NCBI GenBank assembly: GCA_038123275.1 | Contig: JAYORG010000002.1 | Location: forward strand, 10,083-74,082 | Origin: Rickettsiales bacterium | Lineage (GTDB): Bacteria > Pseudomonadota > Alphaproteobacteria > Rickettsiales > UBA1997 | Reading direction: 5' to 3' | Length of the DNA: 64,000 nucleotides | In this document: piece by piece, positions 24,288-51,594 of the stretch | How the letters are laid out: every line of letters begins with the position of its first letter | Numbering within the stretch: the first letter of the stretch is position 1 | Made by a program: the position numbers and the translations under genes | Notes under the pieces: model-generated | The model's input: only the letters and a program-made list of their open reading frames with translations | Told to the model about the DNA's origin: nothing | The model's database searches: none

Positions 24288-24737
24288 CTATTTAATTTTA
24301 AAGTATTTATCTGCTGATATTTTTCCGCTACCATAGATAAAAATAGTAGATAGCAAGAAGAGCCAATAGAAATGTTCAATATTTTGTATCACTAGAAATT
24401 GGATTGTAAGTGTCATAACTATTAAAGGTATAACTGCAAATCTACTTAAAAGACCTAATGCTAAAAGTACAGGGCAAACTAACTCAAAGAATGTACCAAT
24501 ATAAGCTGCAAAAACAGGAGATATCAAAGGTAAGTCATATTCATACTCAAACAGATAAATAGCATTATCAATGTTGGCGAATTTATTTCTACCACTTTTA
24601 AAAAAGATATTAGCCATCCATAGCCTACAGGATAATAACAATATAGATGCAAAATAGTCTTCTATTACATTAAAAAACTTGTTATTAGATTTTGTGATTA
24701 ATCTTGTAATTTTCTTGGTACTAATCATTTTTAACAT
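24288..24737 (-). CDS. DoxX-family membrane protein (last gene of the MNIO/bufferin-like operon)
   Basis: 149 aa; 4 TM; LLLSCRLWMANIFFKSGRNKF matches the DoxX N-terminal pattern; overlaps the upstream DUF2063 gene. Confidence 0.7.
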   Translation of the reverse strand: MLKMISTKKITRLITKSNNKFFNVIEDYFASILLLSCRLWMANIFFKSGRNKFANIDNAIYLFEYEYDLPLISPVFAAYIGTFFELVCPVLLALGLLSRFAVIPLIVMTLTIQFLVIQNIEHFYWLFLLSTIFIYGSGKISADKYFKIK

Positions 24738-25476
24738 TGAAATTGGTTATTATTTTGCAAGAGACAAACTTATTTATTAAAGATCCTATATCAAAATCTT
24801 CTTTATTTAAGCTTAAAGTTTCATGAATTTGGTAAATATTCTTCTTCTCTTCAATCATTTTTAGAAAACCATACTCAGCCTTTGCTAAATTATGAATATT
24901 AACCTTAAAAGATGATCCTTCAATGATAATAAATTGGCCTTTTTTTTCTTCAAGATTAATTTTATCTTTAGACCATATTGAATAGATTGGATATTTTGAA
25001 GCAATTAAATAACATGAAGGGTGTAAATTAAAGTATAGAGACATAAAGTCATCTTCACTTAAAGATTGTAATTTTTTAATGTCAATTGGCTTTGCATCTT
25101 TACTAAAGTAAGATAAATTGTAAAACCATTCCAAGTTAGCAAGATCAGTTAAGTAAGGTAATTTATGTTCTTTTTCTAAGCTTTTAATAAATTTTGGAAA
25201 ATATTGTCCATAATCTTCTAAATTTCCGCTTTTAGAATGATATTTATGATGATACTGCTTTATTATCTTATAAAAATAATCATCTCCTACGATATTTTTG
25301 GTGGATTCATAAGTTAGTGATAAGGAATCATCAAAGCTGCTAAATATATTATTTCGATAAATATCCATCCTTTGTCTAATGTCTATTTTGCTAGAATTAA
25401 TCTTAGAAAATATTTTTAAGTTATTTTGATTATAAATATGATTAGCAAACTGCTCTTGTAGGTCTGATAGATTCAT
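24721..25476 (-). CDS. DUF2063-family protein (MNIO partner, BufC-like)
   Basis: 251 aa; LQEQFANHIY...MDIYRNNIFSSFDDSLSLTYESTKNIVGDDYF matches the DUF2063 N-terminal consensus (vYRNn...L...fP....lvG...F). Confidence 0.65.
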   Translation of the reverse strand: MNLSDLQEQFANHIYNQNNLKIFSKINSSKIDIRQRMDIYRNNIFSSFDDSLSLTYESTKNIVGDDYFYKIIKQYHHKYHSKSGNLEDYGQYFPKFIKSLEKEHKLPYLTDLANLEWFYNLSYFSKDAKPIDIKKLQSLSEDDFMSLYFNLHPSCYLIASKYPIYSIWSKDKINLEEKKGQFIIIEGSSFKVNIHNLAKAEYGFLKMIEEKKNIYQIHETLSLNKEDFDIGSLINKFVSCKIITNFNVKND

Positions 25477-26311
25477 TATTTATTATTAGTTGTTCTGCCT
25501 TTTTGGCTTCATTTAATAAATTTTCGATAGATGGTAGATCTTGATCCCACTCTATTAATGATGGTGAATTAAATTTTTTAATAGCAATTTTATAAAGATC
25601 CCAAACTTCATCGCAAACATAATTATCATGTGTATCAATTAAAATTATATTACCATCAATATTGGACTTGCTATGTCCAGCTAAATGTATTTCTTTAACT
25701 ATTTGCGGGTTAATATTATTAATATAAGAAATAGGGTCAAATTTATTATTATAAGAGCTGACATAAATATTGTTGATATCAAGTAATATTTTGCATCCAG
25801 TTTTATTTGCTACTTGGTTAATGAAATCATCTTCTGCAATTTCTGATTCTTTAAAACTTAGGTAGGTTGATGGATTTTCAACCAGAATTTCTTTTTTAAG
25901 AAAATCTTGCACTTGTGATATATTGCTACATAAAGCTTCTAGAGATTCTTTGGTATAAGGTAGTGGAAGTAGGTCGTTTAAAACCTGATTTTTAATATTA
26001 CTCCATGATATATGATCAGAAATTAAAAATGGATCACAAAATTCAACTAGTTTTTTAAGTTTTTGTAAGTGAGTTTGGTCAATTTTTTGAGCTGAACCAA
26101 GTGATAGGCCAACACCATGTAAGCTTAAGGGATAACTTTCTCTAATTTTTTTTAAAAAGCCAAGAGACGGACCGCCATCGGCAAAGAAATTTTCACTATG
26201 AACTTCAAGCCAAGGAATATTTGGCTTATTTTTTAATATATAATCGTGGTGAGGGTGTCTTAAACCAATCCCAACTGCAGTAGTTGAGATTGGTTTTTTA
26301 ATTTTAAACAC
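25442..26311 (-). CDS. DUF692 / MNIO-family (multinuclear non-heme iron oxidative) RiPP-modifying enzyme (BufB-like)
   Basis: 289 aa; VGIGLRHPHHDYIL, WLEVHSENFF, YPLSLHGVGLSLGS, ISDHISW, VENPSTYL, IHLAGHS, LIEWD. Confidence 0.8.
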   Translation of the reverse strand: MFKIKKPISTTAVGIGLRHPHHDYILKNKPNIPWLEVHSENFFADGGPSLGFLKKIRESYPLSLHGVGLSLGSAQKIDQTHLQKLKKLVEFCDPFLISDHISWSNIKNQVLNDLLPLPYTKESLEALCSNISQVQDFLKKEILVENPSTYLSFKESEIAEDDFINQVANKTGCKILLDINNIYVSSYNNKFDPISYINNINPQIVKEIHLAGHSKSNIDGNIILIDTHDNYVCDEVWDLYKIAIKKFNSPSLIEWDQDLPSIENLLNEAKKAEQLIINNESIRPTRAVC

Positions 26312-26333
26312 TTAGAAATATGAATAAAATTGA

Positions 26334-26516
26334 TTACTTTTTTTTGCTATGGCAGCCATTACTTCCACAGCTATGTTTGCCAGATTTCTTGCTTTTGCAA
26401 GAATTTTTTCCACCACATTTATGAGATCCATCTTTAGCGCCAAACATTGAACAAGCAGAAGTTAGAGTAATAAGAGCAACACCAGTTGCTACTGATTTTA
26501 AAAAATTAGTTTTCAT
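26334..26516 (-). CDS. small exported Cys/His/Lys-rich peptide (candidate second RiPP precursor)
   Basis: 60 aa: MKTNFLKSVATGVALITLTSACSMFGAKDGSHKCGGKNSCKSKKSGKHSCGSNGCHSKKK. Its signal peptide aligns with that of the adjacent DUF2282 peptide, and GKHSC is shared. It sits between the precursor and the MNIO gene. Confidence 0.5.
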   Translation of the reverse strand: MKTNFLKSVATGVALITLTSACSMFGAKDGSHKCGGKNSCKSKKSGKHSCGSNGCHSKKK

Positions 26517-26565
26517 AATAAATTTAATTTTAGATTAATAAAAAAGTATAAGTAGTGGTATTTTC

Positions 26566-26820
26566 TTAACCTAAAATGCCATTGACAATTTTTGTACAAG
26601 TGCCTTTAGGTAGTAAAACCCATTCATTTTTATCTCCATCTTTAGTTGCTCCACCAGCACAAGAATGTTTACCTTGTTTGTCGCTGCAATCATTTTGACC
26701 AGCTTTAACAACTCCATAACATTTTTCCATTTTTTTAGATTTAGCTTGTGCTTCCAATGTTATTAGAGAAATAGCACCAACACCAAGAATTACAGATGAT
26801 AAAAAAGTTTTTTTGTTCAT
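26566..26820 (-). CDS. DUF2282-family exported peptide (BufA1/bufferin-type precursor)
   Basis: 84 aa; signal peptide ...LEAQA/KS; core EKCYGVVKAGQNDCSDKQGKHSCAGGATKDGDKNEWVLLPKGTC with the four conserved Cys. Confidence 0.75.
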   Translation of the reverse strand: MNKKTFLSSVILGVGAISLITLEAQAKSKKMEKCYGVVKAGQNDCSDKQGKHSCAGGATKDGDKNEWVLLPKGTCTKIVNGILG

Positions 26821-26867
26821 TGTATATTATGTTAGAAATTTAGTATATATAGTTGGTTGAATGGTCA

Positions 26868-26895
26868 AATCTAAAATCATAATTATTTTTGTCAA
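26868..26895 (-). promoter_or_regulatory. candidate sigma70-type promoter of the bufferin-like operon
   Basis: On the minus strand: TTGACA (26895-26890), 16-nt spacer, TAGATT (26873-26868); about 45 nt upstream of the precursor ATG. Confidence 0.3.
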
Positions 26896-26935
26896 ACTTA
26901 ATTTATTTAAATTTTGAAAAGGTTACAAATTTGTA

Positions 26936-32532: not shown

Positions 32533-33698
<1,166 letters not shown>

Positions 33699-34242: not shown

Positions 34243-35262
34243 TTAATAGCATTCATATTCAACAGGTTCCCATTGGCCATTTAGGCCACATTTTCTTCTA
34301 GGGTAAAGAAAATTATCTGGATTATCACTATAACATCCATACTCACTACAATCAATATTGCCTTGCGTGGTTTCGCCATAATATGCTGCTGGAAATTCAA
34401 TTTCTTCTCCAGAACAGCTATCATTATAAGATGATGTTTCTTCAGGGCAAACAGTAATATTAAAGCCACCAATTTCTTGAACTAATGTCTCTCTGGTATT
34501 GTAAGCTATTAAATCATCAAAGTCACTACCTCCAGAATTGACAACAAAGACATTATCAAATATATCGCCACCAGATACTCCAGTTGGTGCGTTATTTTCT
34601 TCATCTGTATCACTACTTGAGCCATTTTGAGTTGAGCCGCTATTAATATTAAAGGCTCTATAGCCATTTGATCCATGACTAATAAGTGCATAGGTAGCAA
34701 CAGTAGTAATGCTTGAACCAGGTTGACCAGATATTGTTTCTTGAATTGTAATAGGATCTACGCTAGATGTAGCATCCATATTTGTTCCTTCAAATCCTGA
34801 TGCACCACCGCTGGCAAAAACTTCTGTTAATTGTTTAGGAACTACATAAGAAAATTTATTATCAAATCCATCTCCTAAATATTCTAGGTTAAGACCTAAA
34901 GCTTTAACAGGAACTGCGCCATAAACTAGGCCCTCATTAGCATTACTATTTGTTGAGGTTAGTACACCAGTTGCAGTACAATCTCCAGCACTTCCAGCTT
35001 CTGCTCCATAGGTAGAATCAGTTGTGATATCATGTAAAGATGCTGGGCAGGGTAATCTTTTATAGGTGTAAACAAAAACATTTAAGGCTTTTTGAATGAC
35101 TGCCATTTTATCTTTAGTAGATTTAGCTTTGGCATTTTTAAGGGCGCTTGTAGAAGCTGTTACAGCTCCAGAAATTATAACTGAAATAATAGCTAAAACA
35201 ATGGATAATTCAATTAAGCTAAATGCTGATTTTCTGGTTTTTGTGATGGTATTGATAGTCAT
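34243..35262 (-). CDS. large type IV pilin-like protein, paralog 1 (prepilin-type N-terminus, Cys-rich C-terminal module)
   Basis: 339 aa; basic leader MTINTITKTRKSA then FSLIELSIVLAIISVIISG (Phe+1, Glu+5, hydrophobic helix); conserved RLPCPASLHDITTD; 8 Cys; C-terminal RKCGLNGQWEPVEYEC. Confidence 0.7.
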   Translation of the reverse strand: MTINTITKTRKSAFSLIELSIVLAIISVIISGAVTASTSALKNAKAKSTKDKMAVIQKALNVFVYTYKRLPCPASLHDITTDSTYGAEAGSAGDCTATGVLTSTNSNANEGLVYGAVPVKALGLNLEYLGDGFDNKFSYVVPKQLTEVFASGGASGFEGTNMDATSSVDPITIQETISGQPGSSITTVATYALISHGSNGYRAFNINSGSTQNGSSSDTDEENNAPTGVSGGDIFDNVFVVNSGGSDFDDLIAYNTRETLVQEIGGFNITVCPEETSSYNDSCSGEEIEFPAAYYGETTQGNIDCSEYGCYSDNPDNFLYPRRKCGLNGQWEPVEYECY

Positions 35263-35393: not shown

Positions 35394-36401
35394 CTAGATG
35401 CACCCATCTATAGCAGATTCCCATTGACCATTTAGGCCACATTTTCTAGTAGCAGTGCCACTTGAACATCCAGCTATTGATGCACAAGTTTCATTGCTAT
35501 TTACATTTGTAGTTCCATCGTAGTATCTTGCCGGAAATGTTAATCCATTACCTGAAGTTAAGCATCCTGGGCTAAAGTCAGAAGTTTCTGTTGTGCAAAC
35601 GGTTGTGCTAAAACCTCCAATATCTTTGACTATGAGTTCTCTGGTGCTGTAAACTACAATATCATCAAAACCAGAATCATTAGAACTTGTAATAAAAGTT
35701 TTGTCAAATATGTCACCGCCAGATACTCCAGTTGGTGAATTATCCTCTTCATCTGTACTGGTAGAAGATCCATTTTGAATGGATCCACTATTAATATTAA
35801 AAGCTCTAAAACCATTTGGTCCATGACTTAAAACAACATAGGCACCAATAAGAGTTGTAATAGTTCCAGTAGATCTTATTTCTATGGGATCTAAATTAAC
35901 AGTATCAGACATGTCTGCCCCCTCAAAGCCTACAGCACCACCATTAACAAAAGTTTCGGTTAGTTGTTGAGGTACTATATAGGAAAATTTATTATCAAAT
36001 GCATCTCCCATGAGCTCAATATCTAGACCCAGATCTTTAACAGGAACTGCTCCATAAATTAGGCCATCATTAGCGGCTGTATTTGTTGAAGTTAAAGCTC
36101 CAGTAGCAGTACAAGTCCCAGATGTTCCTGCTTCTGTTCCATATGCAGTATCGGTTGTTATATCATGCAAAGATGCTGGGCAGGGTAGCCTTTTATTGTT
36201 ATACACAAAAATATGTAAAGCATGTTGGATGGTTTTTATTCTATCTTTTGTTATTTTAATTTTAGCATTTTTGATGTTATTTGTAGACACACTAATATAT
36301 CCAGAAATAATAATGGCAATAATGGCCATTATAACTGATAATTCAATAAAGCTAAATGCTGATTTTTTCCTTTTTTGAATTTTATTGCTGTTATTTAGCA
36401 T
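35394..36401 (-). CDS. large type IV pilin-like protein, paralog 2
   Basis: 335 aa; leader ...KRKKSA then FSFIELSVIMAIIAIIISG; same RLPCPASLHDITTD core; C-terminal RKCGLNGQWESAIDGC. Confidence 0.7.
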   Translation of the reverse strand: MLNNSNKIQKRKKSAFSFIELSVIMAIIAIIISGYISVSTNNIKNAKIKITKDRIKTIQHALHIFVYNNKRLPCPASLHDITTDTAYGTEAGTSGTCTATGALTSTNTAANDGLIYGAVPVKDLGLDIELMGDAFDNKFSYIVPQQLTETFVNGGAVGFEGADMSDTVNLDPIEIRSTGTITTLIGAYVVLSHGPNGFRAFNINSGSIQNGSSTSTDEEDNSPTGVSGGDIFDKTFITSSNDSGFDDIVVYSTRELIVKDIGGFSTTVCTTETSDFSPGCLTSGNGLTFPARYYDGTTNVNSNETCASIAGCSSGTATRKCGLNGQWESAIDGCI

Positions 36402-36416
36402 TTTATTAGATTTTAT

Positions 36417-37442
36417 TTAAGAACATCCATCTATTGCTGGTTCCCATTGGCCATTTAAGCCACATTTTCTAGTTGTAGTACCGCTTGAACACCCTGTAAT
36501 TGAGGCGCAAGTTTCGTTGCTACCTACATTTGTGGTTCCATCGTAATAGCTTACAGGAAATGTTAAACCACTACCTGAAGTAAGACATCCTGGACTAAAG
36601 TCAGAAGTTTCAGTGGTGCAAGCAGTAATGTTAAAGCCGCCAATTTCTCTAACAAGAGTTTCTCTAATATTGTAAACAACAATATCATCAAAATCAGCAC
36701 TTCCAGAGCTTTTGATAAATATATTGTCAAATATATCGCCACCAGATACTCCAGTTGGTGCATTATCTTCTTCATCTGTATCGCTACTTGAGCTATTTTG
36801 AGTTGAGCCGCTATTAATATTAAATGCTCTTAGGCCATCTGGTCCGTGACTTAGAACAACATAGACTGCATTTGTAGTGATGTTTGAGCCAGAAGATACA
36901 GTTTCTCTAATTGTAATAGGGTCAACATTAGCTGTATCAGTCATGTCTGTTCCTTCAAAGCCATCAGCTGAGCCAGAAACAAAAGCCTCTGTAACTTGTT
37001 GTGGTACTATGTAAGAGAACTTATTATCAAAGGCATCTCCTAGCATTTCAATATCTAAACCCAAAGCTTTTACAGGAACTGCGCCATAAACTAAGCCATC
37101 ATTAGCAGCTGTATTTGTTGAAGTTAAAATACCAGTAGCAGTGCAAGTCCCAGCCGTTCCAGCTTCTGTTCCATATGCTGTGTCGGTTGTTATATCATGC
37201 AATGATGCTGGGCAGGGCAATCTTTTATTAGTATATACAAAGACCCCTAAGGCTTTTTTGATAATTTCTATTCTTTCTTTTGTTGTTTTAATTTTGGCAT
37301 TTTTTATGGCACTTGTAGAAACTGTAATAGAGCTAGAAATTATAATAGCAATAATTGCTAAAACAATTGATAACTCAATTAAGCTAAATGCTGATTTGTT
37401 TCCCTTTTTTTTTGAGGTTTTATTAGACATTATTATTAGCAA
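36417..37442 (-). CDS. large type IV pilin-like protein, paralog 3
   Basis: 341 aa; leader ...KKGNKSA then FSLIELSIVLAIIAIIISS; mostly identical to paralog 2 by eye; only 15 nt upstream of paralog 2. Confidence 0.7.
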   Translation of the reverse strand: MLIIMSNKTSKKKGNKSAFSLIELSIVLAIIAIIISSSITVSTSAIKNAKIKTTKERIEIIKKALGVFVYTNKRLPCPASLHDITTDTAYGTEAGTAGTCTATGILTSTNTAANDGLVYGAVPVKALGLDIEMLGDAFDNKFSYIVPQQVTEAFVSGSADGFEGTDMTDTANVDPITIRETVSSGSNITTNAVYVVLSHGPDGLRAFNINSGSTQNSSSSDTDEEDNAPTGVSGGDIFDNIFIKSSGSADFDDIVVYNIRETLVREIGGFNITACTTETSDFSPGCLTSGSGLTFPVSYYDGTTNVGSNETCASITGCSSGTTTRKCGLNGQWEPAIDGCS

Positions 37443-37542
37443 ATTAACATTAGTTATTGATAAATGATAAAGCGCAAACTATTATTTAGTGTATCACATC
37501 AACAGCCTAATTACAAGATAAATTCACTAACTTTATAATAAA

Positions 37543-38175
37543 GTGTCACATAATAACATTATTGATATAAACTCTTATAAAAATAAAGGAAATAAAAAGA
37601 TGATAATTGTAATATCTTTAGCAGCTGCAATTTTTGCAATTTTTGCCTTCAATACAATATCTAATTATAATAAATATTTGGCTTTTGAAATAGAGGAATC
37701 TAATAATATTTCTTATGATATTGATGATGTAAAAGATGTTACCCCTTTGGAAATAATTAATAATATTGAAAAAGCTGAAAGAGAGGATAATCCAATTTTA
37801 ATTTATTTTTATACAAGTTGGTGCAGAGTTTGTAAGAAACAATTACCTATTATAAATGAAATTGCACGTAAATTTCAAAATACTGATTTAGAGGTTATTT
37901 TTGTGGCAATTGATAAGAATATTACGCAACAAAAAACAATTGATGGTTTACAAAGTATTAAGGATATTTATTTTCAACCTAAATATTTAAGTGATAGAAA
38001 TGGTTTTAAGGATCTTTTAAAGACTAAATCAATAAAATTTAGGAATAGAATACCATTTTCAGTAATAATTGGTAGAAATTCGCAAATTATTACCCAATTT
38101 AGTGGTTATAAAAATTTTAAATATTTTGATAATAGAATTATGAAAGCATTATTTAGGGAAGATGAGGATATATAA
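37543..38175 (+). CDS. membrane-anchored thioredoxin-fold protein (TlpA/ResA-like)
   Basis: 210 aa from GTG 37543 (ATG at 37600 preceded by aaagga may be the true start); TM MIIVISLAAAIFAIFAF; CxxC in FYTSWCRVCKKQLP; divergent from the pilin-like triplet. Confidence 0.6.
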   Translation: MSHNNIIDINSYKNKGNKKMIIVISLAAAIFAIFAFNTISNYNKYLAFEIEESNNISYDIDDVKDVTPLEIINNIEKAEREDNPILIYFYTSWCRVCKKQLPIINEIARKFQNTDLEVIFVAIDKNITQQKTIDGLQSIKDIYFQPKYLSDRNGFKDLLKTKSIKFRNRIPFSVIIGRNSQIITQFSGYKNFKYFDNRIMKALFREDEDI

Positions 38176-39556
38176 TAGTTTAAGTAAAGAAAAAGAAGAT
38201 TTTATTCCTTTAAATAAAGATAATGTTACTATCTATGTTTGTGGACCTACTGTTTATAGCTATCCACATCTTGGAAATGCTAGAAGTGTAGTAGTGTATG
38301 ATTTATTATTTCGTTTATTTAAGAGCATTTTTCCTAAGGTTACCTATGTTAGAAATATCACAGATGTTGATGATAAAATTAACATTGCCGCTAAAGAGAA
38401 GAAAATTTCCATTCAAAATTTAACTAAAGAATTTATCTCTATTTTTCATGAAGATATGGATAAGCTTCATGTTTTAAAACCAACTTTTGAACCAAGAGCT
38501 ACTGATAATATTAAGGAGATGATAGAGATGATCAAAACTTTAATTAAAAATGGTAATGCTTATGAGAATGAGGGTCATATTTTATTTGATGTTAAGAGTT
38601 TTAAGGATTATGGTAGGCTTTCTAATAGATCTTTAGATGATATGATTGCTGGGTCTCGTATTGAGCAGCAATCATATAAAAAGAATCCATTTGATTTTGT
38701 TTTATGGAAACCATCTTCTAATGATGATGATATTTCAGCAGTTTTTGATAGCCCTTGGGGCAAGGGTAGGCCAGGGTGGCATATTGAATGTTCGGCTATG
38801 AGTGATAAGTTTTTAGGTAAGGATTTTGATATTCATGGTGGTGGGGCAGATCTAAAATTTCCACATCACGACAATGAAATTGCTCAAAGTGTCTGTTCTA
38901 ATAAAGGGTCAAAACATGCACGTTATTGGGTGCATAATGGTTTTTTAACTGTTAATGGTGAAAAGATGAGCAAGTCTCTAGGTAATTTTATTACAGTGAG
39001 AGATCTTTTAAAAAAAGATATTGATGGGGTAGTTATTAGATATCTTTTGCTTTCTACCCATTATCGCAAGCCCCTTGATTTTAGTGACAATGCTTTGGAA
39101 GTTGCCCAAAAGGCTATTGATAAATTTTATGATATTATCGATGAGTTTAGAGATGAATTATTAAATGTAAAAGATAGTCAAAATAATTATTTAACACAGA
39201 TAAAAGAAGCTTTAAGTGATGATTTAAATTCTCCTATTGGCGTTTCTATTTTGCATAAAATAGTTAAAGATTTTAAAAAAGAGCAAGATCAAAATAATAA
39301 GCTAAAATTAGCTTGTAATTTACTTAATTGTTTAGATTTTATTGGTATTTATGATAAAAATTATCAAAAAGATTTGCAAAAAGATAATAATATTGAAGAA
39401 TCTTATATTTTAGAGCAGATTGAACTTAGAAAGCAGGCTAAAAAAGACAAAAATTGGCAATTATGTGATAAAATTAGGGATGATTTAATAGCTAAATTTA
39501 ATGTTATTTTAGAAGATAGCCCTGATGGTGAAGTGAAATGGAAAATTAAAAATTAA
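38162..39556 (+). CDS. cysS: cysteine--tRNA ligase
   Basis: 464 aa; YVCGPTVYSYPHLGNARS (HIGH), GWHIECS, KMSKSLGN; 14-nt overlap with the upstream thioredoxin-like gene. Confidence 0.95.
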   Translation: MRIYNSLSKEKEDFIPLNKDNVTIYVCGPTVYSYPHLGNARSVVVYDLLFRLFKSIFPKVTYVRNITDVDDKINIAAKEKKISIQNLTKEFISIFHEDMDKLHVLKPTFEPRATDNIKEMIEMIKTLIKNGNAYENEGHILFDVKSFKDYGRLSNRSLDDMIAGSRIEQQSYKKNPFDFVLWKPSSNDDDISAVFDSPWGKGRPGWHIECSAMSDKFLGKDFDIHGGGADLKFPHHDNEIAQSVCSNKGSKHARYWVHNGFLTVNGEKMSKSLGNFITVRDLLKKDIDGVVIRYLLLSTHYRKPLDFSDNALEVAQKAIDKFYDIIDEFRDELLNVKDSQNNYLTQIKEALSDDLNSPIGVSILHKIVKDFKKEQDQNNKLKLACNLLNCLDFIGIYDKNYQKDLQKDNNIEESYILEQIELRKQAKKDKNWQLCDKIRDDLIAKFNVILEDSPDGEVKWKIKN

Positions 39557-39559
39557 TAA

Positions 39560-40384
39560 ATGACCATGACTCAAAAAAAGAAAACTGCTTTTACATTAAT
39601 TGAGCTTGCCATTGTGATTGTAATAATTGCCATTGTAATTTCTATGGTTGTTGGTAGATCTTATCTGATTGGGGTAGCTAATTTGGTTAACTTGAGATCT
39701 ATTTCAGCTTCTTCACCTATTTATGAAATATCTGATAATACTTTGTGGCTTGATGTTTCTAATAAAAATGCTTTTACGCCTTATCCAAGTGATAGGACTA
39801 TTGTAGGATCTTGGACTGATTCTAGTCCTTATTTAGAAACTAATATTGCATTTACAACAGCTTTAGGTGATGGCCCTGAATTTATATTTGATAGTGTTGA
39901 TGGTTTACCAGCTTTATATTTTGATGGTGGCGATAGAATTGATAGTGCCTCTGTTGAAGCTTTTAATTTATCTGGGCCAGATAGGTCAACAATATTTGTT
40001 GTAGTAAAGAAATATACGCAATCAGTTAATGCTGATACATTTAGAAGGACTAATTTTAAGTTTGAGCTTGATGCATCTAGTCTTAAGATTGAAAATAATG
40101 GTATTGCCGTAGGTAATTATCCTGCTAATTTTCTGGATAAGTGGAACATTATTGTTGGTAGAAATAGTGATGGCGTTGGGGATATAAGGGTTAATGGTAT
40201 TAATATTACTATGACAGATACTGATATGACTGGTGTAATGACAGGTAGTTCTGTTATGGATGTAGGAAAAGATTTAACTGGTAATATTAGAGAAATTATT
40301 ATTTTTAAAAGAGCATTAGATAATGATGAAATTGTTGATATAGAGAGTTACTTATCCAATAAATGGCAAATTGATATTGATTAG
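39560..40384 (+). CDS. pilin-like protein with LamG/concanavalin-like domain, paralog A
   Basis: 274 aa; MTMTQKKKTA then FTLIELAIVIVIIAIVISM; LWLDVSNKNAF, LPALYFDGGD, C-terminal GNIREIIIFKRALDNDEIVDIESYLSNKWQI (LamG-type ending); starts 3 nt after the cysS stop. Confidence 0.6.
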   Translation: MTMTQKKKTAFTLIELAIVIVIIAIVISMVVGRSYLIGVANLVNLRSISASSPIYEISDNTLWLDVSNKNAFTPYPSDRTIVGSWTDSSPYLETNIAFTTALGDGPEFIFDSVDGLPALYFDGGDRIDSASVEAFNLSGPDRSTIFVVVKKYTQSVNADTFRRTNFKFELDASSLKIENNGIAVGNYPANFLDKWNIIVGRNSDGVGDIRVNGINITMTDTDMTGVMTGSSVMDVGKDLTGNIREIIIFKRALDNDEIVDIESYLSNKWQIDID

Positions 40385-40388
40385 AAAT

Positions 40389-41261
40389 ATGGTAAAAAAT
40401 AACAAAAAAACAGCATTTTCAGCAATTGAAATAGCAATAGTATTAGTGTTTATAGGGCTTTTGCTTGCCGGGATATTTTTTGTTAAGGGTAATTTATTTT
40501 CTAAAGCAAAAACTAATAAGATAATTTCTGCTACTAAATATTCTGTTTTAAAGGATATGGAAGGTTTAGCTGTTTGGTTTGATGTTGCAACTAAGGAATC
40601 TTTTAAAAATAGTGAGATGGTTGAGGGTGGTGGTATTAGTGAGTGGAAAAATATTAGTCCTAATAATTATGGTGATTTTAATGTTGTGCAATCTACTTCT
40701 GATAATCAACCTAAATATCTAATGGATTCAAAAGATAATTTACCGCTAATTAGTTTTAATGGAAGTGCAGATGGATTATATACAACGGGTAATGTATATG
40801 GATATCAGTTAGCTCAAAAAAATCAGGTAACCATATTTTCTGTACAGAAATATTATGATAATAATAATGCAACTATCGGTTGGGGGGTTAACACTAATAG
40901 ATTGTTATTTCATGCAAAATATGGTTTGAATGATATAATATATTTTGATTTTGGTGATATTTCTTCTGGAGGAAGAATAAATAATTTTGCGCCAAGTAAT
41001 TTTAATGAAGACTGGAAAATATTAACATTTGTTAGAAGGGTTGATAATAATGGTCAAATTAGAATTAATGGTAGTGATTTTCTTGTGAGTAGTATGACAG
41101 ATGATTTTGATGTTACTGATGCTAGTGTTTTTATTATAGGGAATGGTGATTCTAAAACAGATTTAAGAGAAGTTATTATTTTTAAGCGTGAATTGTCAGC
41201 AAGTGAAATTGATGAAATTGAAAAATATCTATCTGACAAGTGGAATATTGATTTAGACTAG
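40389..41261 (+). CDS. pilin-like protein with LamG/concanavalin-like domain, paralog B
   Basis: Preferred ATG 40389 (MVKNNKKTA/FSAIEIAIVLVFIGLLLAG); the track ORF begins at an upstream TTG (40371). VWFDVATKESF, LPLISFNGS, TDLREVIIFKRELSASEIDEIEKYLSDKWNI. Confidence 0.6.
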   Translation: MVKNNKKTAFSAIEIAIVLVFIGLLLAGIFFVKGNLFSKAKTNKIISATKYSVLKDMEGLAVWFDVATKESFKNSEMVEGGGISEWKNISPNNYGDFNVVQSTSDNQPKYLMDSKDNLPLISFNGSADGLYTTGNVYGYQLAQKNQVTIFSVQKYYDNNNATIGWGVNTNRLLFHAKYGLNDIIYFDFGDISSGGRINNFAPSNFNEDWKILTFVRRVDNNGQIRINGSDFLVSSMTDDFDVTDASVFIIGNGDSKTDLREVIIFKRELSASEIDEIEKYLSDKWNIDLD

Positions 41262-41262
41262 A

Positions 41263-43608
41263 TTACATGATAATACAATTATCAGGCTTTTCTAGACTTT
41301 TAAAGCCATGCCCCATTAAATAATCAACCATTGCATCACTACCGCTTTGAATAGCAATATCAAGATATGATGTTTTATTTATACTTGCTTTTGATATTGA
41401 GCTTTTGGGCTTTTTGTTAAAAGAATTTTTTTGATCTTTATGTTCTAATAGAGTTGTAATAGTTGGTTTTTTTTGTATATCAGGAAGTGACAATATTAAA
41501 ACTGGTATCATTCTTTTAATATTGTCTAGATTACCATTTTGTATGGTTTGTTTTAATAGAATTTCTTGATAAGCTGGTTTTAAAGATGCTAGAGCTTTAT
41601 TGGATATATTTAAAATAAAGGATGATGTTAGTATTTCATTATTTTGATTTATAATATGTCTTGCTGCTAAGTTAATACTTTCTTGATTTAAAGAATTGCT
41701 TCTTAGTAAAAATCCTAAACTTTCAGAATTTTCTGGAACTGCTATCAAACTAACAAAACCTTTTATATTAGGGTTAGCTCCAGATTTTATTAATAATTTT
41801 ATATTTCCCAAGTAGCATTTTCCTTGTACAGCACAAAATAAAGCACTTCTACCTTCTTTATCAACAAATTCATCAAGGAATTTAGCTAAAAATTTTGGAT
41901 TTGATTTTTCTTCTTGTGCTAGATTTTTTAAATAAGGTTCTAAATGTTCTGTGCCATGATTACTACATATATTATGTATATTTCCTAATTGTTCATTTAC
42001 TTCAACCAAATTAGATAATAGTGAGATATTTTTATGTTTGAACATTACCTTTGCAATAAAGGTATTCTTTTGTGCAAAATTAAATAACTTTTTTGCTAAC
42101 ACTGATCTTTCATTGTGGCATATCTGAGTAATTATCTCATCTAAAAATATTTTATCATCTGCTTTAAATGCTCCCCATTCTTTTTTCTCTAATAAGAAGT
42201 AAAATATTTTAGGGTCATTATGTATTATTGTTGTAAGTATATTTTTGTTATAGTCTATTTTGATATTGTATTGAGTACATAGATTTGCTAAAAAATTAAC
42301 TGACTTTAAGTATCGGCCATGTGAAACAGCAAGGTCAAAGGGGTTATTTTTATTATAATCTAGCTGTGATAGTAGTTGAATTATAATGTTGCTAACCCCA
42401 ATTTTAGATTCTTGGCCTGATTTTACTAAGTCTACTTCTAGGGTTTTAATATATTTTGAAAGTGCCTTTTCATTATGGCTATTTAAACAGGCATAAGAAA
42501 AGAAGTTATGACTATTTCTATCTATGGATAATGGATTAAAGCCATTTTCAATTAAAATTCCAATAGTTTTATTATATCTTTTAGATGTTGCATATTTTAA
42601 AAAATATATATTTTGTCTTAATCTATTTAAGTTTAGACTTATATTTTCACATTGTGTAAATATATCCCTTAGATAGGCATCACCATTATTAGAATTATCT
42701 TCAATAGCATTTCTTATTAAACTACCAACATATTTAAGCAGCATTCTTTTAGCTCTTAATAATTCTCTTTTGGTATTATCTTCTTCTGGAAATAAATCTT
42801 CTGGTGTTGGAGGCATATTGCCAATTTTTTTGATCAGTAATGGTCTTAAATTTATGCCTTTTTCTTTGCATTTTGCAAAGATTAACATTAAATTTTCGTT
42901 GCTAGTATAAGTTATGGCTATATTTATTAAGAGATCGAGATATTCTATGGGTGTACTATTATTAATATTTTTTATGCTTAACTCAAATAATCTGTATATG
43001 TCTTTTTTTAATTTGCTTGTATCTCGATAGTCAAAATATTGAAAGGGGAATTCTTCCTTAATTCTAAAATAAAATCTTTCCTCATCACCTAAATATTCTT
43101 TGCTAATACAATAATAGGCTAATTTATGGTCATTTGCTATTTTAATAAAGATCATAGCCATGCTGGACAGAAAATTATTTTGCATGATATTTTCCTGCAT
43201 ATAATCATCTATGGCATCAAATATTGCCTTAATGTTATTTTGTGTTAGTATATTATGGGCTAGGCTAGCAGTAGTAGTCTTTTGATGATCTGCATTTTTA
43301 TTAACATCATTCCTATATAATTGCTCAAGGCGTAATAATTGTTGAGTTAATTTTCTTTGTTTTTCTAATTTTGGATTAACTACGACTTTAGGGCCAAAAG
43401 ATAGTCTTTCTAAGTCTATGGTACTTAAATCTAGATATTGCTCTTGATCTAGATAATCTGAAGAATCAGAGTCTGAATAGCTAGAATCTGCAAGAATATA
43501 GTTTTTAGGTTGATAATTTGAAGTATGAGGTTTTGTATATTTAGATTCTACTGCTTCAGGTTTTGGATTTTTAGATTTTGAAGTATTTTTTAATATTTCT
43601 TTTCTCAT
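41263..43608 (-). CDS. large ankyrin-repeat protein (candidate effector)
   Basis: 781 aa, no signal peptide; Ser/Asp/Tyr-rich N-terminus. ANK-like units include GRSALFCAVQGKCYLGNIKLLIKSGANPNIKG, NPFDLAVSHGRYLKSVNFLANL and SYLDIAIQSGSDAMVDYLMGHGF. Confidence 0.6.
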   Translation of the reverse strand: MRKEILKNTSKSKNPKPEAVESKYTKPHTSNYQPKNYILADSSYSDSDSSDYLDQEQYLDLSTIDLERLSFGPKVVVNPKLEKQRKLTQQLLRLEQLYRNDVNKNADHQKTTTASLAHNILTQNNIKAIFDAIDDYMQENIMQNNFLSSMAMIFIKIANDHKLAYYCISKEYLGDEERFYFRIKEEFPFQYFDYRDTSKLKKDIYRLFELSIKNINNSTPIEYLDLLINIAITYTSNENLMLIFAKCKEKGINLRPLLIKKIGNMPPTPEDLFPEEDNTKRELLRAKRMLLKYVGSLIRNAIEDNSNNGDAYLRDIFTQCENISLNLNRLRQNIYFLKYATSKRYNKTIGILIENGFNPLSIDRNSHNFFSYACLNSHNEKALSKYIKTLEVDLVKSGQESKIGVSNIIIQLLSQLDYNKNNPFDLAVSHGRYLKSVNFLANLCTQYNIKIDYNKNILTTIIHNDPKIFYFLLEKKEWGAFKADDKIFLDEIITQICHNERSVLAKKLFNFAQKNTFIAKVMFKHKNISLLSNLVEVNEQLGNIHNICSNHGTEHLEPYLKNLAQEEKSNPKFLAKFLDEFVDKEGRSALFCAVQGKCYLGNIKLLIKSGANPNIKGFVSLIAVPENSESLGFLLRSNSLNQESINLAARHIINQNNEILTSSFILNISNKALASLKPAYQEILLKQTIQNGNLDNIKRMIPVLILSLPDIQKKPTITTLLEHKDQKNSFNKKPKSSISKASINKTSYLDIAIQSGSDAMVDYLMGHGFKSLEKPDNCIIM

Positions 43609-48808: not shown

Positions 48809-49261
48809 ATGGATAAATTTAAAAAATTACAACTAGATTTACTAGACAAAAAGTTTATTAAATTTAAAGAAATTAACCTTCCTAAAAAGGGCTGGATAAA
48901 TACTGTGCGCACTTCTTTGTCAATGACATTAGAGCAATTAGCAAAAAGGCTAGGGGTAAGCACTTCAGCGGTTTCTCAGTTTGAGCAAAGTGAAATACAA
49001 GAAAATATTAGCTTACAAACACTACAAAAAGTTGCCAACGCTATGAATTGCAAATTAAGCTATGTTTTTATCCCAAATAATAAATCATTTCATAGTATCA
49101 TTAAAGACCAAGCGCGTAAAAAAGCCAAAGAAATGGTCAAAGATGTTAATGATTCCATGGCTCTAGAAAATCACAAGGTTAAAAATAATACTGATTCCGT
49201 AAAATCTTTAACAAAAGAACTTTTAAAAGACTACAATTCAAAAATATGGTCAGATGATTAA
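48809..49261 (+). CDS. XRE-family HTH protein ('mobile mystery protein A' type)
   Basis: 150 aa; GWINTVRTSLSMTLEQLAKRLGVSTSAVSQFEQSE helix-turn-helix; 8-nt overlap with the downstream Fic gene, as in the mob_myst_A/B pair. Confidence 0.65.
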   Translation: MDKFKKLQLDLLDKKFIKFKEINLPKKGWINTVRTSLSMTLEQLAKRLGVSTSAVSQFEQSEIQENISLQTLQKVANAMNCKLSYVFIPNNKSFHSIIKDQARKKAKEMVKDVNDSMALENHKVKNNTDSVKSLTKELLKDYNSKIWSDD

Positions 49262-49838
49262 TTACATTTACAAAGAGGGTCAAACCCCCATAAACGAAGA
49301 TGAAAAGAATGACTTAATCCCAGAACTTAGCACCCAAGAAGAACTAAATAAATGGGAGCAAGAAAATATTCTTGAAGCACAAAAATGGCTTTTAGGAAAA
49401 TCTCTAACAAAAAGTAATATTTTTGATTCAACTTTCCTCAAAGAGCTTCACAATAAAATGTTTAACAAAACATGGAGATGGGCTGGAACTTACAGAAAAA
49501 CCAATAAAAATATTGGTTGCAAATTTTATCAAATAGACGCTCAAGTTAAAGAATTAAAAGGTGATACTACATTTTGGCTACAAAACAAAACCTACAGTAT
49601 TAAACAACTAGCTTTAGTCTATCACCATCGCCTAGTAAAAATTCACCTATTTCCCAACGGCAACGGCCGCCATTCTCGCCTTATGGCAGATTTAATCATA
49701 AAAAAATACCAAGGACAAAATCTAGAATGGCAAAACAAAAACTTTAAATCCTTTGACGATTTCAGAAAAGAATACATCTCATCCTTAAGAAAAGCCGATC
49801 ACTGCAACTACCAAAATCTATTCAATCTATTTGATTAA
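49254..49838 (+). CDS. Fic-domain protein ('mobile mystery protein B' type)
   Basis: 194 aa; Fic active-site motif HLFPNGNGRHSRL (HxFx[D/E/N]GNGRxxR). Confidence 0.8.
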   Translation: MINYIYKEGQTPINEDEKNDLIPELSTQEELNKWEQENILEAQKWLLGKSLTKSNIFDSTFLKELHNKMFNKTWRWAGTYRKTNKNIGCKFYQIDAQVKELKGDTTFWLQNKTYSIKQLALVYHHRLVKIHLFPNGNGRHSRLMADLIIKKYQGQNLEWQNKNFKSFDDFRKEYISSLRKADHCNYQNLFNLFD

Positions 49839-50364: not shown

Positions 50365-51594
50365 ATGAGGTGTCTAATGAAAACATTTAGTAAAGGATTA
50401 GGAAGTTTGGTAAGATCAAGATTATCTAATATTAGGCCAGGAGTGGTTCTTGGTAAACCTAGATTTTTATCATACACTGTTGTTGCGCAATTGCCAAATT
50501 TATTAGCAAAAGCTATTAAAGATAATACTGTTAATAGTCCGGAGTCATTTTCAGATCACCTAGCAAGAGAGGCACCAAAATGTAAAGATTCACAAAAATT
50601 AATTACAGCATTAGACACATTTAAAAAAGATTCTGATCATACAGGGTTATTCATATCCGGATTTCCTTCTCATAACAAAGAAACAAAAAGTAGAATCAAA
50701 AAGGCAGAAGAAGAAAGTTTAAAACAAAGGTCAGATTTTGTTAATATGATAGCATATCTTACAAATAATGTTGTTTTTGGTGATTCTGCATTAAAAAAAG
50801 AAAAAGAAACAATACAAAAGGAATTATATCAAAGGTTAGTAAGTTCTATGAGCTTAATTACAGATAATGTTGATCTTGATCCTTTATATGATGCTGCAAT
50901 GATTAATTCTAAAAATAATAGTGATGTTGGAATATTTGATGATAGGGCAGTATTTAACCGTGGTGATCATTTACCACATCATATAGATCAAGTACCAGGT
51001 GGCATAATAGAGGCTGTCACATTATATGGTGTAGATTCTACAAGTTCTACAGTTACTTATACTATGGAAGTAGACGATATTTGTAAAAAATTATCTGATA
51101 AAACAAAAGAAATTTTATCACGTAAAATATTTTGTAATGATGTTGGTAAACCAGGAGCTTTTAGAGATCAAACACCATTTGCTGTATTAGTAAAGGATAA
51201 ATATGGAGCAATTCATATTAATATAAATTATGAACATCAATTTGCTTCTCCTGTTGTTTTAAATTCCGTTAGTGCTAAAGAAAGAGAAGAGGCATATGAA
51301 GCTTTATGGGAAGTTAGCAAGGTTGTTGATAAAATGGTTAAAGATAAGGAATGTCAGGAATTTATAATAAAAACAGGAGATTTATTAGTATCTAAAAATA
51401 CCAGACAATTACACGGTAGAAATAAAGTGCAAAAAGGTGAAAGAACATTGTTAAGAGGTCATTATTGTGGTGAAAAAGGTAAAGGGTTGATACCACTTAC
51501 ATATCTTGATGAAAAAGAGGTACAGTTACCAAGTTCTTCTGTAAAGAATGTTAATGTAGATACTAAAGAAATAAAAGAAGAAAAAGGAAGATAG
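50365..51594 (+). CDS. putative Fe(II)/2-oxoglutarate-dependent dioxygenase (TauD / clavaminate-synthase-like)
   Basis: 409 aa; HxD in LPHHIDQ; distal TGDLLVSKNTRQLHGRNKV...ERTLLRGHY matches the family pattern GDlli.dN.r.lHgR...R.L.R. Confidence 0.45.
   Translation: MRCLMKTFSKGLGSLVRSRLSNIRPGVVLGKPRFLSYTVVAQLPNLLAKAIKDNTVNSPESFSDHLAREAPKCKDSQKLITALDTFKKDSDHTGLFISGFPSHNKETKSRIKKAEEESLKQRSDFVNMIAYLTNNVVFGDSALKKEKETIQKELYQRLVSSMSLITDNVDLDPLYDAAMINSKNNSDVGIFDDRAVFNRGDHLPHHIDQVPGGIIEAVTLYGVDSTSSTVTYTMEVDDICKKLSDKTKEILSRKIFCNDVGKPGAFRDQTPFAVLVKDKYGAIHININYEHQFASPVVLNSVSAKEREEAYEALWEVSKVVDKMVKDKECQEFIIKTGDLLVSKNTRQLHGRNKVQKGERTLLRGHYCGEKGKGLIPLTYLDEKEVQLPSSSVKNVNVDTKEIKEEKGR

Follow-up and report, generated by a model that had tools for sequence, protein, structure and literature searches.

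A prepilin N_methyl motif (IPR012902) combined with a Laminin_G_3 domain (PF13385) is among the commonest architectures of modular pilins (Raynaud et al. 2021, PMC8179133). Glycan binding is documented for the lectin module of Streptococcus sanguinis PilC, and models place this module at the tip of the pilus (PMC9934059); environmental, deep-branching Rickettsiales have been reported to encode type IV pili (T4P; PMC9352585). Thioredoxin (Trx)-fold proteins are encoded beside pilus subunit genes in F-type conjugation (TraF/TrbB). The membrane-anchored or lipoprotein Trx proteins of the TlpA, ResA and CcmG type mostly serve as reductants in cytochrome c or copper-centre maturation and are not known for pilin folding. 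The 64-kb stretch of contig JAYORG010000002.1 analyzed here (hereafter the window; ~30% GC, about 93% coding; host an uncultured aquatic alphaproteobacterium labelled Rickettsiales by NCBI) brings such components together around cysS, the gene for cysteine--tRNA ligase (CysRS). With a probability of roughly 0.6, it contains a clade-conserved locus for type IV filament subunits, either of a type IV pilus or of a pseudopilus like that of the type II secretion system (T2SS), in which cysS is a passenger. The components belong to known kinds: modular pilins with a laminin G (LamG)-type module, an ordinary CysRS and a Trx-fold oxidoreductase of the periplasm. The points of most interest are the Trx-pilin link, a conserved element in the spacer between the two arms of the locus, and a lineage-wide family of LamG pilins whose cleavage site is preceded by Ala (position -1), together with its giant members.

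Four genes follow one another on the plus strand: a membrane-anchored Trx-fold protein (37543-38175, 210 aa), cysS (38162-39556, 464 aa), and LamG-type modular pilins A (39560-40384, 272-274 aa) and B (40389-41261, 290 aa). This order, with a 14-nt overlap and gaps of 3 and 4 nt, had been reported in an earlier, sequence-only reading of the window and was reproduced at the same positions. According to the open reading frame (ORF) list and the junction sequences, the end of the Trx ORF overlaps the start of cysS by 14 nt, and the 3-nt gap between cysS and pilin A is a second consecutive TAA. Pilin A begins at 39560 as an ORF, with ATG 39566 preferred by the gene caller; pilin B lies 4 nt behind A when read from ATG 40389 and overlaps it by 14 nt when read from TTG 40371, the start of the mechanical ORF. 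On the minus strand, three tandem pilin-like paralogs with eight cysteines each (paralog 1, 34243-35262; paralog 2, 35394-36401; paralog 3, 36417-37430) precede ndk and tgt. As also described earlier, the Trx gene is divergent from this triplet; the spacer measures 100 nt from the TTG of the mechanical ORF, and 112 nt if ATG 37430 is taken as the start of paralog 3. This ATG gives paralog 3 a length of 337 aa, that of NCBI record P0166; the mechanical ORF extends to 37442. The motifs named in the sequence-only reading are present as well, namely WCRVC in the Trx protein (SWCRVCKK) and, in the two LamG pilins, WLDV and WFDV, LPALYFDG and LPLISFNG, and the endings IREIIIFKRALDNDEIVDIESYLSNKWQIDID and LREVIIFKRELSASEIDEIEKYLSDKWNIDLD. 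The two LamG pilins are indeed paralogous (30% identity over 287 aa, tblastn E 2e-24).

Parts of this block recur in seven related lineages (L002, L083, L082, L087, L169, L170 and L171), where cysS is 59-78% identical. In a search for relatives of cysS, the best match, in an uncultured Rickettsiales metagenome-assembled genome (MAG; L002), had 68% identity and all other matches of that search had 50% or less. L002 has tgt-ndk-Cys-pilin divergent from Trx-cysS-LamG-LamG, and L083 has ndk-Cys-pilin divergent from Trx-cysS-LamG-LamG-groES. Two short contigs (L082, L087) contain cysS-LamG-LamG, L169 has a Cys-pilin gene divergent from Trx-cysS, and L170 and L171 retain the Cys-pilin/Trx pair. The succession cysS-LamG-LamG is common to the window, L002, L083, L082 and L087, all of which hold an A/B ortholog pair, and the divergent Cys-pilin/Trx arrangement is common to the window, L002, L083, L169/L170 and L171. 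In the window as well as in L002, L083 and L169, the last 11-14 nt of the Trx gene are shared with cysS. The right flank after pilin B differs in all four visible cases (ankyrin-repeat protein, outer membrane protein-like, groES and guaA); two left flanks were seen, and that of L169 deviates. Because the block recurs in related lineages while its flanks differ, it is not the chance juxtaposition that the sequence-only reading had offered as the way in which it might fail, and it is a conserved unit within its clade. No Trx or LamG homolog was detected within +/-10 kb of 78 other cysS loci, including those of Pelagibacteraceae, Rickettsia-labelled MAGs and Deianiraea, with hidden Markov models (HMMs) of the Trx protein, LamG pilins and Cys-pilins; the lone exception to the empty neighborhoods is one weak pilin-type match in L064. 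A widespread Trx-cysS pairing is not supported by these 78 genomes, in which the models found no such gene within that distance of cysS.

The three 8-Cys paralogs (339, 335 and 337 aa) are 71-80% identical at the DNA level, forming the tandem DNA repeat families D1, D2 and D4. Paralog 2 is 77% identical to paralog 3, and the eight cysteines are invariant across five orthologs. They have the class III leader motif KSA↓FSLIE, with Ala at -1, Phe at +1 and Glu at +5. Paralogs 1 and 3 score 23.4-24.6 bits on N_methyl (24.6 for paralog 1; Pfam gathering cutoff (GA) 21.2), and paralog 2 falls just under this cutoff (20.1 bits, E 4.7e-4). The pilin-like proteins reach 19.8-24.5 bits on TIGR02532 (cutoff 16.3; paralog 1, 24.5 bits). 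An AlphaFold2 (AF2) model of paralog 3 built from 56 sequences (pLDDT 86.8, pTM 0.82) shows an alpha1 helix of canonical form and 52 residues (20-71), followed by a globular head and, at the C-terminus, a mini-domain with six cysteines. Foldseek returned no PDB match under E 0.4 for this model, so that the head is without a significant match. The mini-domain occupies the C-terminal ~65 aa of each paralog (34243-34450, 35394-35600 and 36417-36620) and ends in RKCGLNGQWE...C; it weakly resembles the hormone-receptor domain HRM (Pfam HRM E 0.008 for paralog 2), with further weak matches to class-B G protein-coupled receptor ectodomains and to CD46 SCR, and its fold may be Sushi-like. A word-index search found at least 463 members of this family, mostly with Ala at -1 and six or eight cysteines. 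Given the full-length alpha1 and the three recently duplicated copies, we infer that the Cys-rich pilins are the main, or major-type, filament subunit. Their N-terminal 60 residues match the T2SS major pseudopilin GspG (TIGR01710, E 1.5e-5; 25 bits against a cutoff of 88.85). The likeness to GspG lies in this N-terminus and in the presence, in a relative, of a GspF/PilC-family platform protein; however, GspG has ~140 aa, whereas the Cys-rich pilins have 335-341 aa, eight cysteines and the C-terminal Cys-rich mini-domain.

Both LamG pilins lack cysteine and carry a class III motif, KKTA↓FTLIE in A and KKTA↓FSAIE in B, the latter recognized by eye and reported by no model. Pilin A scores 27.2 bits on N_methyl (PF07963, GA 21.2), and the module of B gives a weak match to Laminin_G_3 (21.4 bits, E 3e-4). 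The AF2 model of A places a beta sandwich between an alpha1 helix of 38 residues (11-48) and a helix at the C-terminus. Foldseek gave 144 PDB matches for it at E <=0.001 (TM-score to target up to 0.55), and the best 50 of these 144 are all concanavalin A (ConA)-like, LamG or carbohydrate-binding module-type jelly rolls with a probability of 1.0. Targets at this probability include domain 4 of AbnA, S. sanguinis PilC and the lectin domains of trans-sialidases. The leader motifs and N_methyl in A support the sequence-only reading of these proteins as pilin-like, and the beta sandwich of this low-confidence model and the homologous modules elsewhere point to a LamG/ConA-like jelly roll in both A and B.

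S. sanguinis PilC (7OA7/7OA8) resembles A in having a class III signal peptide, a short pilin moiety and a ConA-like/LamG jelly roll; 7oa8 is the second-best Foldseek match of the A model (E 4e-7) and a weak profile match (E 0.026). The role proposed for the window proteins, in which they would present a putative glycan-binding module on a type IV filament, is shared with PilC too. PilC (52.8 kDa) has an extra Ig-like module, whereas the jelly roll of the window protein follows directly after a ~38-residue helix, and identity is ~13%. PilC is encoded in a compact 22-kb pil locus of a monoderm, whereas the window belongs to a diderm with pilin genes apart from the machinery. Pilins A and B also have the two-part architecture of N_methyl plus PF13385 modular pilins, but they lie under the Pfam cutoff and form a distinct subfamily, marked by Ala at -1, WLDV and a C-terminal helix of the pattern E-I-x-x-I-E-x-Y-L-S-x-K-W.

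The rarity of LamG pilins implied by the sequence-only reading is wrong, for the family is large. A profile of four LamG pilins matched 16,220 representatives at E <=0.001 in an exhaustive search, 576 of them at <=1e-30, which overturns the status of near-orphan suggested for A by a word-index search (three proteins). A tally of 162 family proteins was drawn from the word-index and profile searches. More than half of these (89/162) are proteins of 250-335 aa matched end to end; 39 of them have no cysteine and 84 have a class III motif, with Ala at -1 in 65 and Gly in 19. Another 71 are giants (1,000-6,150 aa; within P0007-P0154) with 4-15 tandem copies of the LamG module. Some family members exceed the PF13385 GA (P0007, 196.8 bits; P0045, 57.4 bits), and PF13385 is precomputed on P0156, P0157, P0161 and P0163. 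The score of the module in the giant P0007 secures, through transitive homology, the assignment to LamG. The WLDV/Ala(-1) subfamily is abundant in low-GC aquatic contigs.

Several giants, among them P0008 (3863 aa), P0019 (3173 aa) and P0010 (2087 aa), have a prepilin-like N-terminus (RSGFSLVEVALV, TAGFSLTEIAIV), and such proteins would be multi-LamG 'pilins' of >3,000 aa. Two other proteins, P0077 (699 aa) and P0131 (685 aa), are LamG pilins extended at the C-terminus by arrays of a Cys-rich ~45-aa repeat (C-x-L-A-x-G-x-G-Y ... F-x-C-x-x-G-Y-T-G-T-I-x-Y-x-C-P), and join two domain types that the window encodes in separate genes. Ala replaces the near-universal Gly at -1 in 109/117 Cys-rich pilins (family P0166-P0285) and 65/84 LamG pilins, which implies a prepilin peptidase adapted to Ala.

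The Trx-fold protein has a Lys-rich N-terminal tail, crosses the membrane once (at about residues 20-41) and carries WCRVC and a cis-Pro-type RIPF in its Trx domain. Its GTG start at 37543 is supported by conservation of the tail in orthologs. Since a basic tail precedes the membrane segment, the CXXC domain is predicted by the positive-inside rule to face the periplasm. Generic Trx-fold models pass their cutoffs (Thioredoxin_8, 43.6 bits; AhpC-TSA, 43.4; Thioredoxin, 33.8; and Redoxin; range 33.0-43.6), and sequence matches in the PDB are a' domains of protein disulfide isomerase (PDI), thioredoxin and ResA (E 5e-8 to 1e-5). The protein shares an N-terminal anchor, an extracytoplasmic Trx domain, CXXC and a cis-Pro loop with TlpA, ResA, CcmG/DsbE, StoA and pneumococcal Etrx, the kind of protein to which its best named matches belong. 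It differs from the TlpA/ResA/CcmG group in scoring 26-33 bits against cutoffs of 123-230 (ResA 33.4/170, TlpA 28.4/230, DsbE 26.5/123) and in having RV, GI or SV in place of CxPC: the motif is CRVC, CGIC or CSVC among its orthologs. No named subfamily (ResA, TlpA, DsbE, TrxA, StoA or TrbB) is reached, all being far under cutoff. No DsbA-family model occurs among its Pfam and NCBIfam matches at E <=0.1, and there is no room for a DsbA-type helical insert, because the 210 aa already include the tail, the membrane segment and a linker. TraF (PF13728) matches at 25.5 bits (GA 23) over profile positions 133-173 of 224, that is, 41 positions around CXXC, and the other TraF/TrbB models remain low (TIGR02740, 21.9 against 232; TIGR02738, 17.6 against 132; TrbB, E 0.0023). 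The parallel with TraF/TrbB is further limited in that their pilus is a conjugative (type IV secretion) one and that of the window would be a type IV pilin filament.

A role of the Trx protein in disulfide formation of the 8-Cys pilins is plausible: its divergent adjacency to them is kept in five lineages, its CXXC domain would be periplasmic, and each 8-Cys pilin requires four disulfides. A second, independent adjacency of Trx and LamG pilin genes involves a secreted ResA-like protein of 168-170 aa with WCGIC, the tetrapeptide also present in the L002 ortholog. Its gene lies on the minus strand (L100, 10821-11333; L109, 1066-1578; L113, 11811-12317), convergent with a LamG pilin gene whose end it overlaps. 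In L100 and L113 these LamG pilins are Cys-free, so that Trx adjacency does not track Cys content.

The divergent spacer (37431-37542) is a probable bidirectional promoter region. It contains an 18-nt element, TTAGTTATTGATAAATGA (37450-37467), holding the imperfect palindrome TTATTGATAA. The core of the element, ATTGATAAA, is nearly invariant, one base of L002 being different, in five lineages whose proteins are only 44-78% identical. A promoter-like match at 37457-37485 (+) uses TTGATA of the element as its -35 hexamer, and the element may be a shared operator or a -35 region. Promoter predictions across the window are not above background (62 sites against 60 +/- 7.5 in shuffles), AT-rich DNA being uninformative in this respect. 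No terminator-like hairpin was found at any of the three junctions of Trx-cysS-LamG-LamG; the window as a whole has seven, not clearly above the shuffled mean of 4.2 +/- 2.4. A perfect hairpin with an 8-bp stem, TATGAACC-AAA-GGTTCATA, lies in the ndk/tgt interval (33659-33677), with T-runs on both strands. No other site near the locus is convincing as a bidirectional terminator-like structure, and the leftward pilin-ndk transcript likely ends here. An Rfam scan of the window gave no RNA family, and thus no T-box or riboswitch ahead of cysS.

CysRS of the window is canonical (515.7 bits on TIGR00435, cutoff 340; tRNA-synt_1e, E 2.4e-121), with KMSKS and a HIGH-type HLGN seen in the translation. 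A specialized paralog such as an MshC-like ligase is ruled out (270 against a cutoff of 485). The sequence-only reading had proposed that translational coupling to this essential ligase would lock in the expression of its neighbors. This proposal is not supported in that form, since overlaps and gaps of a few nucleotides are the norm in this genome: the 44 same-strand junctions of the window, computed from mechanical ORF starts, have a median gap of 13 nt, 48% are at <=10 nt and 25% overlap. Tight spacing at the cysS locus is no more than genome background, and locked-in expression is not needed to explain it. Related LamG pilin genes are equally tight behind other housekeeping genes (aminotransferase, rlmN and relA). 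In related organisms (identities to the window of 81% for ilvD in L113 and L119 and of 73% for pyrG in L167) and in other low-GC aquatic contigs, LamG pilin genes occur singly or in arrays of 2-4 right behind unrelated housekeeping genes, among them an aminotransferase gene (L084) and typA-rph-rlmN (L086), and homologous Cys-rich pilins elsewhere lie behind relA or an epimerase gene. As pilin genes are scattered through housekeeping operons, the position of cysS is one instance of a general pattern, fixed in one clade. This scatter, together with the usual shortness of gaps, makes cysS probably a passenger co-transcribed with the pilin genes; genome compaction most likely explains its embedding, which matters little.

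A rival explanation is a functionally heterogeneous neighborhood, in which the pilins, Trx protein and CysRS are unrelated and are kept together since overlapping, packed genes are hard to separate. The Trx protein would then serve the periplasm in a general way, like TlpA, CcmG, ResA and Etrx, for instance in repairing methionine sulfoxide, assembling copper centres or maturing cytochrome c, and not in pilin folding. Packing is tight throughout the genome, related LamG and Cys-rich pilins stand behind many housekeeping genes with no Trx or cysS near, ResA, TlpA and DsbE are among the named matches of the Trx protein (all far under cutoff), and the ResA-like WCGIC protein of L100 and L113 adjoins Cys-free LamG pilins. 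However, the block is intact in seven lineages despite rearranged flanks, the spacer element is conserved in five, and the CxPC typical of TlpA, ResA and CcmG is missing. This explanation is credible but rather doubtful.

The preferred reading, a locus for type IV filament subunits, would work as follows. The ~110-nt spacer would drive transcription in both directions, leftward of the three 8-Cys pilins and rightward of an operon of Trx, cysS, LamG A and LamG B. The five pilin-like proteins would be processed by a prepilin peptidase and machinery encoded elsewhere and polymerize through alpha1. By analogy with S. sanguinis PilC, the Cys-free LamG pilins, with a jelly roll attached almost directly to a short alpha1, would most likely expose a carbohydrate-binding module, either at the filament tip or as a low-abundance subunit. 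If the 8-Cys pilins have their four disulfides formed or shuffled by a protein of the locus, the best candidate is the Trx protein, anchored in the inner membrane. In a genome that is 93% coding, inheritance of the operon would keep cysS where it is, with no special regulatory design.

Several observations weigh against this reading. No prepilin peptidase, ATPase, platform protein or secretin was found among the scanned ORFs of the window (four ORFs of >=120 aa were unscanned or partly scanned), and filament assembly in the host is for that reason a prediction. Laminin_G_3 lies below its GA of 27.6 in both LamG pilins (A, 15.2 bits, E 0.025; B, 21.4 bits), and the model of A is of low confidence (pLDDT 59.4, pTM 0.67). 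The CXXC dipeptide of the Trx protein drifts (CRVC, CGIC, CSVC), its nearest relatives (thioredoxin, PDI a' and ResA) include reductases, and homologous pilins with 6-8 Cys occur in more distant relatives where no Trx gene is adjacent. The assignment of major and minor subunit roles is drawn from architecture only. Finally, left-flank synteny with L002 spans several genes, so that part of the conservation of the block may be general synteny.

Among these, the lack of assembly genes in the window also favors an interpretation in which the class III signal peptide is a mere export or anchor device and the LamG proteins, perhaps with the Cys-rich ones, are surface or periplasmic lectins or T2SS-like substrates, not filament subunits. 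The LamG pilin genes of relatives are dispersed and multi-copy (arrays of 2-4), the giants of 2,000-3,900 aa with a prepilin-like N-terminus (P0008, P0019 and P0010) could hardly pack into a filament body, and the N-termini match GspG weakly (E 1.5e-5). N_methyl-tagged proteins are numerous in Planctomycetes and Verrucomicrobia and provide an analogy. On the other hand, Glu5 and a full hydrophobic alpha1N are present in 5/5 proteins, and the model of the Cys-rich pilin, which is of high confidence, has the canonical alpha1 of 52 residues. In a relative (L167), 9 kb separate a homologous Cys-rich pilin from a platform gene of the GspF/PilC family; this gene is below every equivalog cutoff and so does not discriminate between T4P and T2SS. 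In S. sanguinis, moreover, modular pilins with bulky modules do assemble into pili (PMC8179133, PMC9934059), and a non-filament role is improbable.

A broader joint reading is quite unlikely as well. In it, the TTATTGATAAAT-bearing bidirectional region would couple Cys-rich pilins, a dedicated disulfide catalyst and CysRS as one pilus-biogenesis regulon, and the Ala(-1), jelly-roll-headed LamG pilins would represent a distinct lineage-wide design of lectin-bearing filament, with the giants as its extreme form. A cysteine-themed regulon, in which a shared bidirectional control region would serve to express the Cys-rich pilins jointly with CysRS and the periplasmic thiol oxidoreductase and so fit Cys-tRNA supply and disulfide formation to pilin output, accords with the Trx-cysS overlap and divergent Cys-pilin arrangement kept in every lineage showing both, with the conserved spacer element and with the eight invariant cysteines, but it is highly improbable given the modest demand of 8 Cys in ~340 aa (2.4%), a cytoplasmic CysRS that serves the whole proteome, homologous Cys-rich pilins elsewhere that are unlinked to cysS, and no precedent found.

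Other features of the window lie outside this locus or at its border. LamG pilin B converges on a gene for a 781-aa ankyrin-repeat protein (41263-43608, -), the two stop codons being 1 nt apart; the ankyrin-repeat gene is not at the corresponding position in L002, L083 and L087. A three-gene cluster (24288-26311, -) encodes an MbnB/TglH/ChrH-family (DUF692) enzyme, a DUF2063 protein and DoxX, a type linked to modification of peptides like ribosomally synthesized and post-translationally modified peptides (RiPPs); a small precursor ORF may lie in the 620-nt gap upstream of it (26312-26935). At 48809-49838 (+), an HTH_3 (Cro/C1-type) gene overlaps a Fic/DOC-family gene, and the pair may be a toxin-antitoxin-like or AMPylation module. 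Three large plus-strand ORFs have no Pfam family above threshold (56402-59431, 1009 aa; 1235-2344, 369 aa; 50365-51594, 409 aa).

The locus is a compact case of a periplasmic Trx-fold protein linked to pilins. If the reading as type IV filament subunits is true, a poorly known aquatic, Rickettsiales-labelled group builds type IV filaments with lectin-type modular pilins, and the 8-Cys pilins of which these filaments would consist are unusual and bear a Sushi/HRM-like knob at the C-terminus. Filaments of this kind would be plausible tools for attachment to eukaryotic hosts, prey or particles, and would thus bear on the origin of host association in this part of the Alphaproteobacteria.

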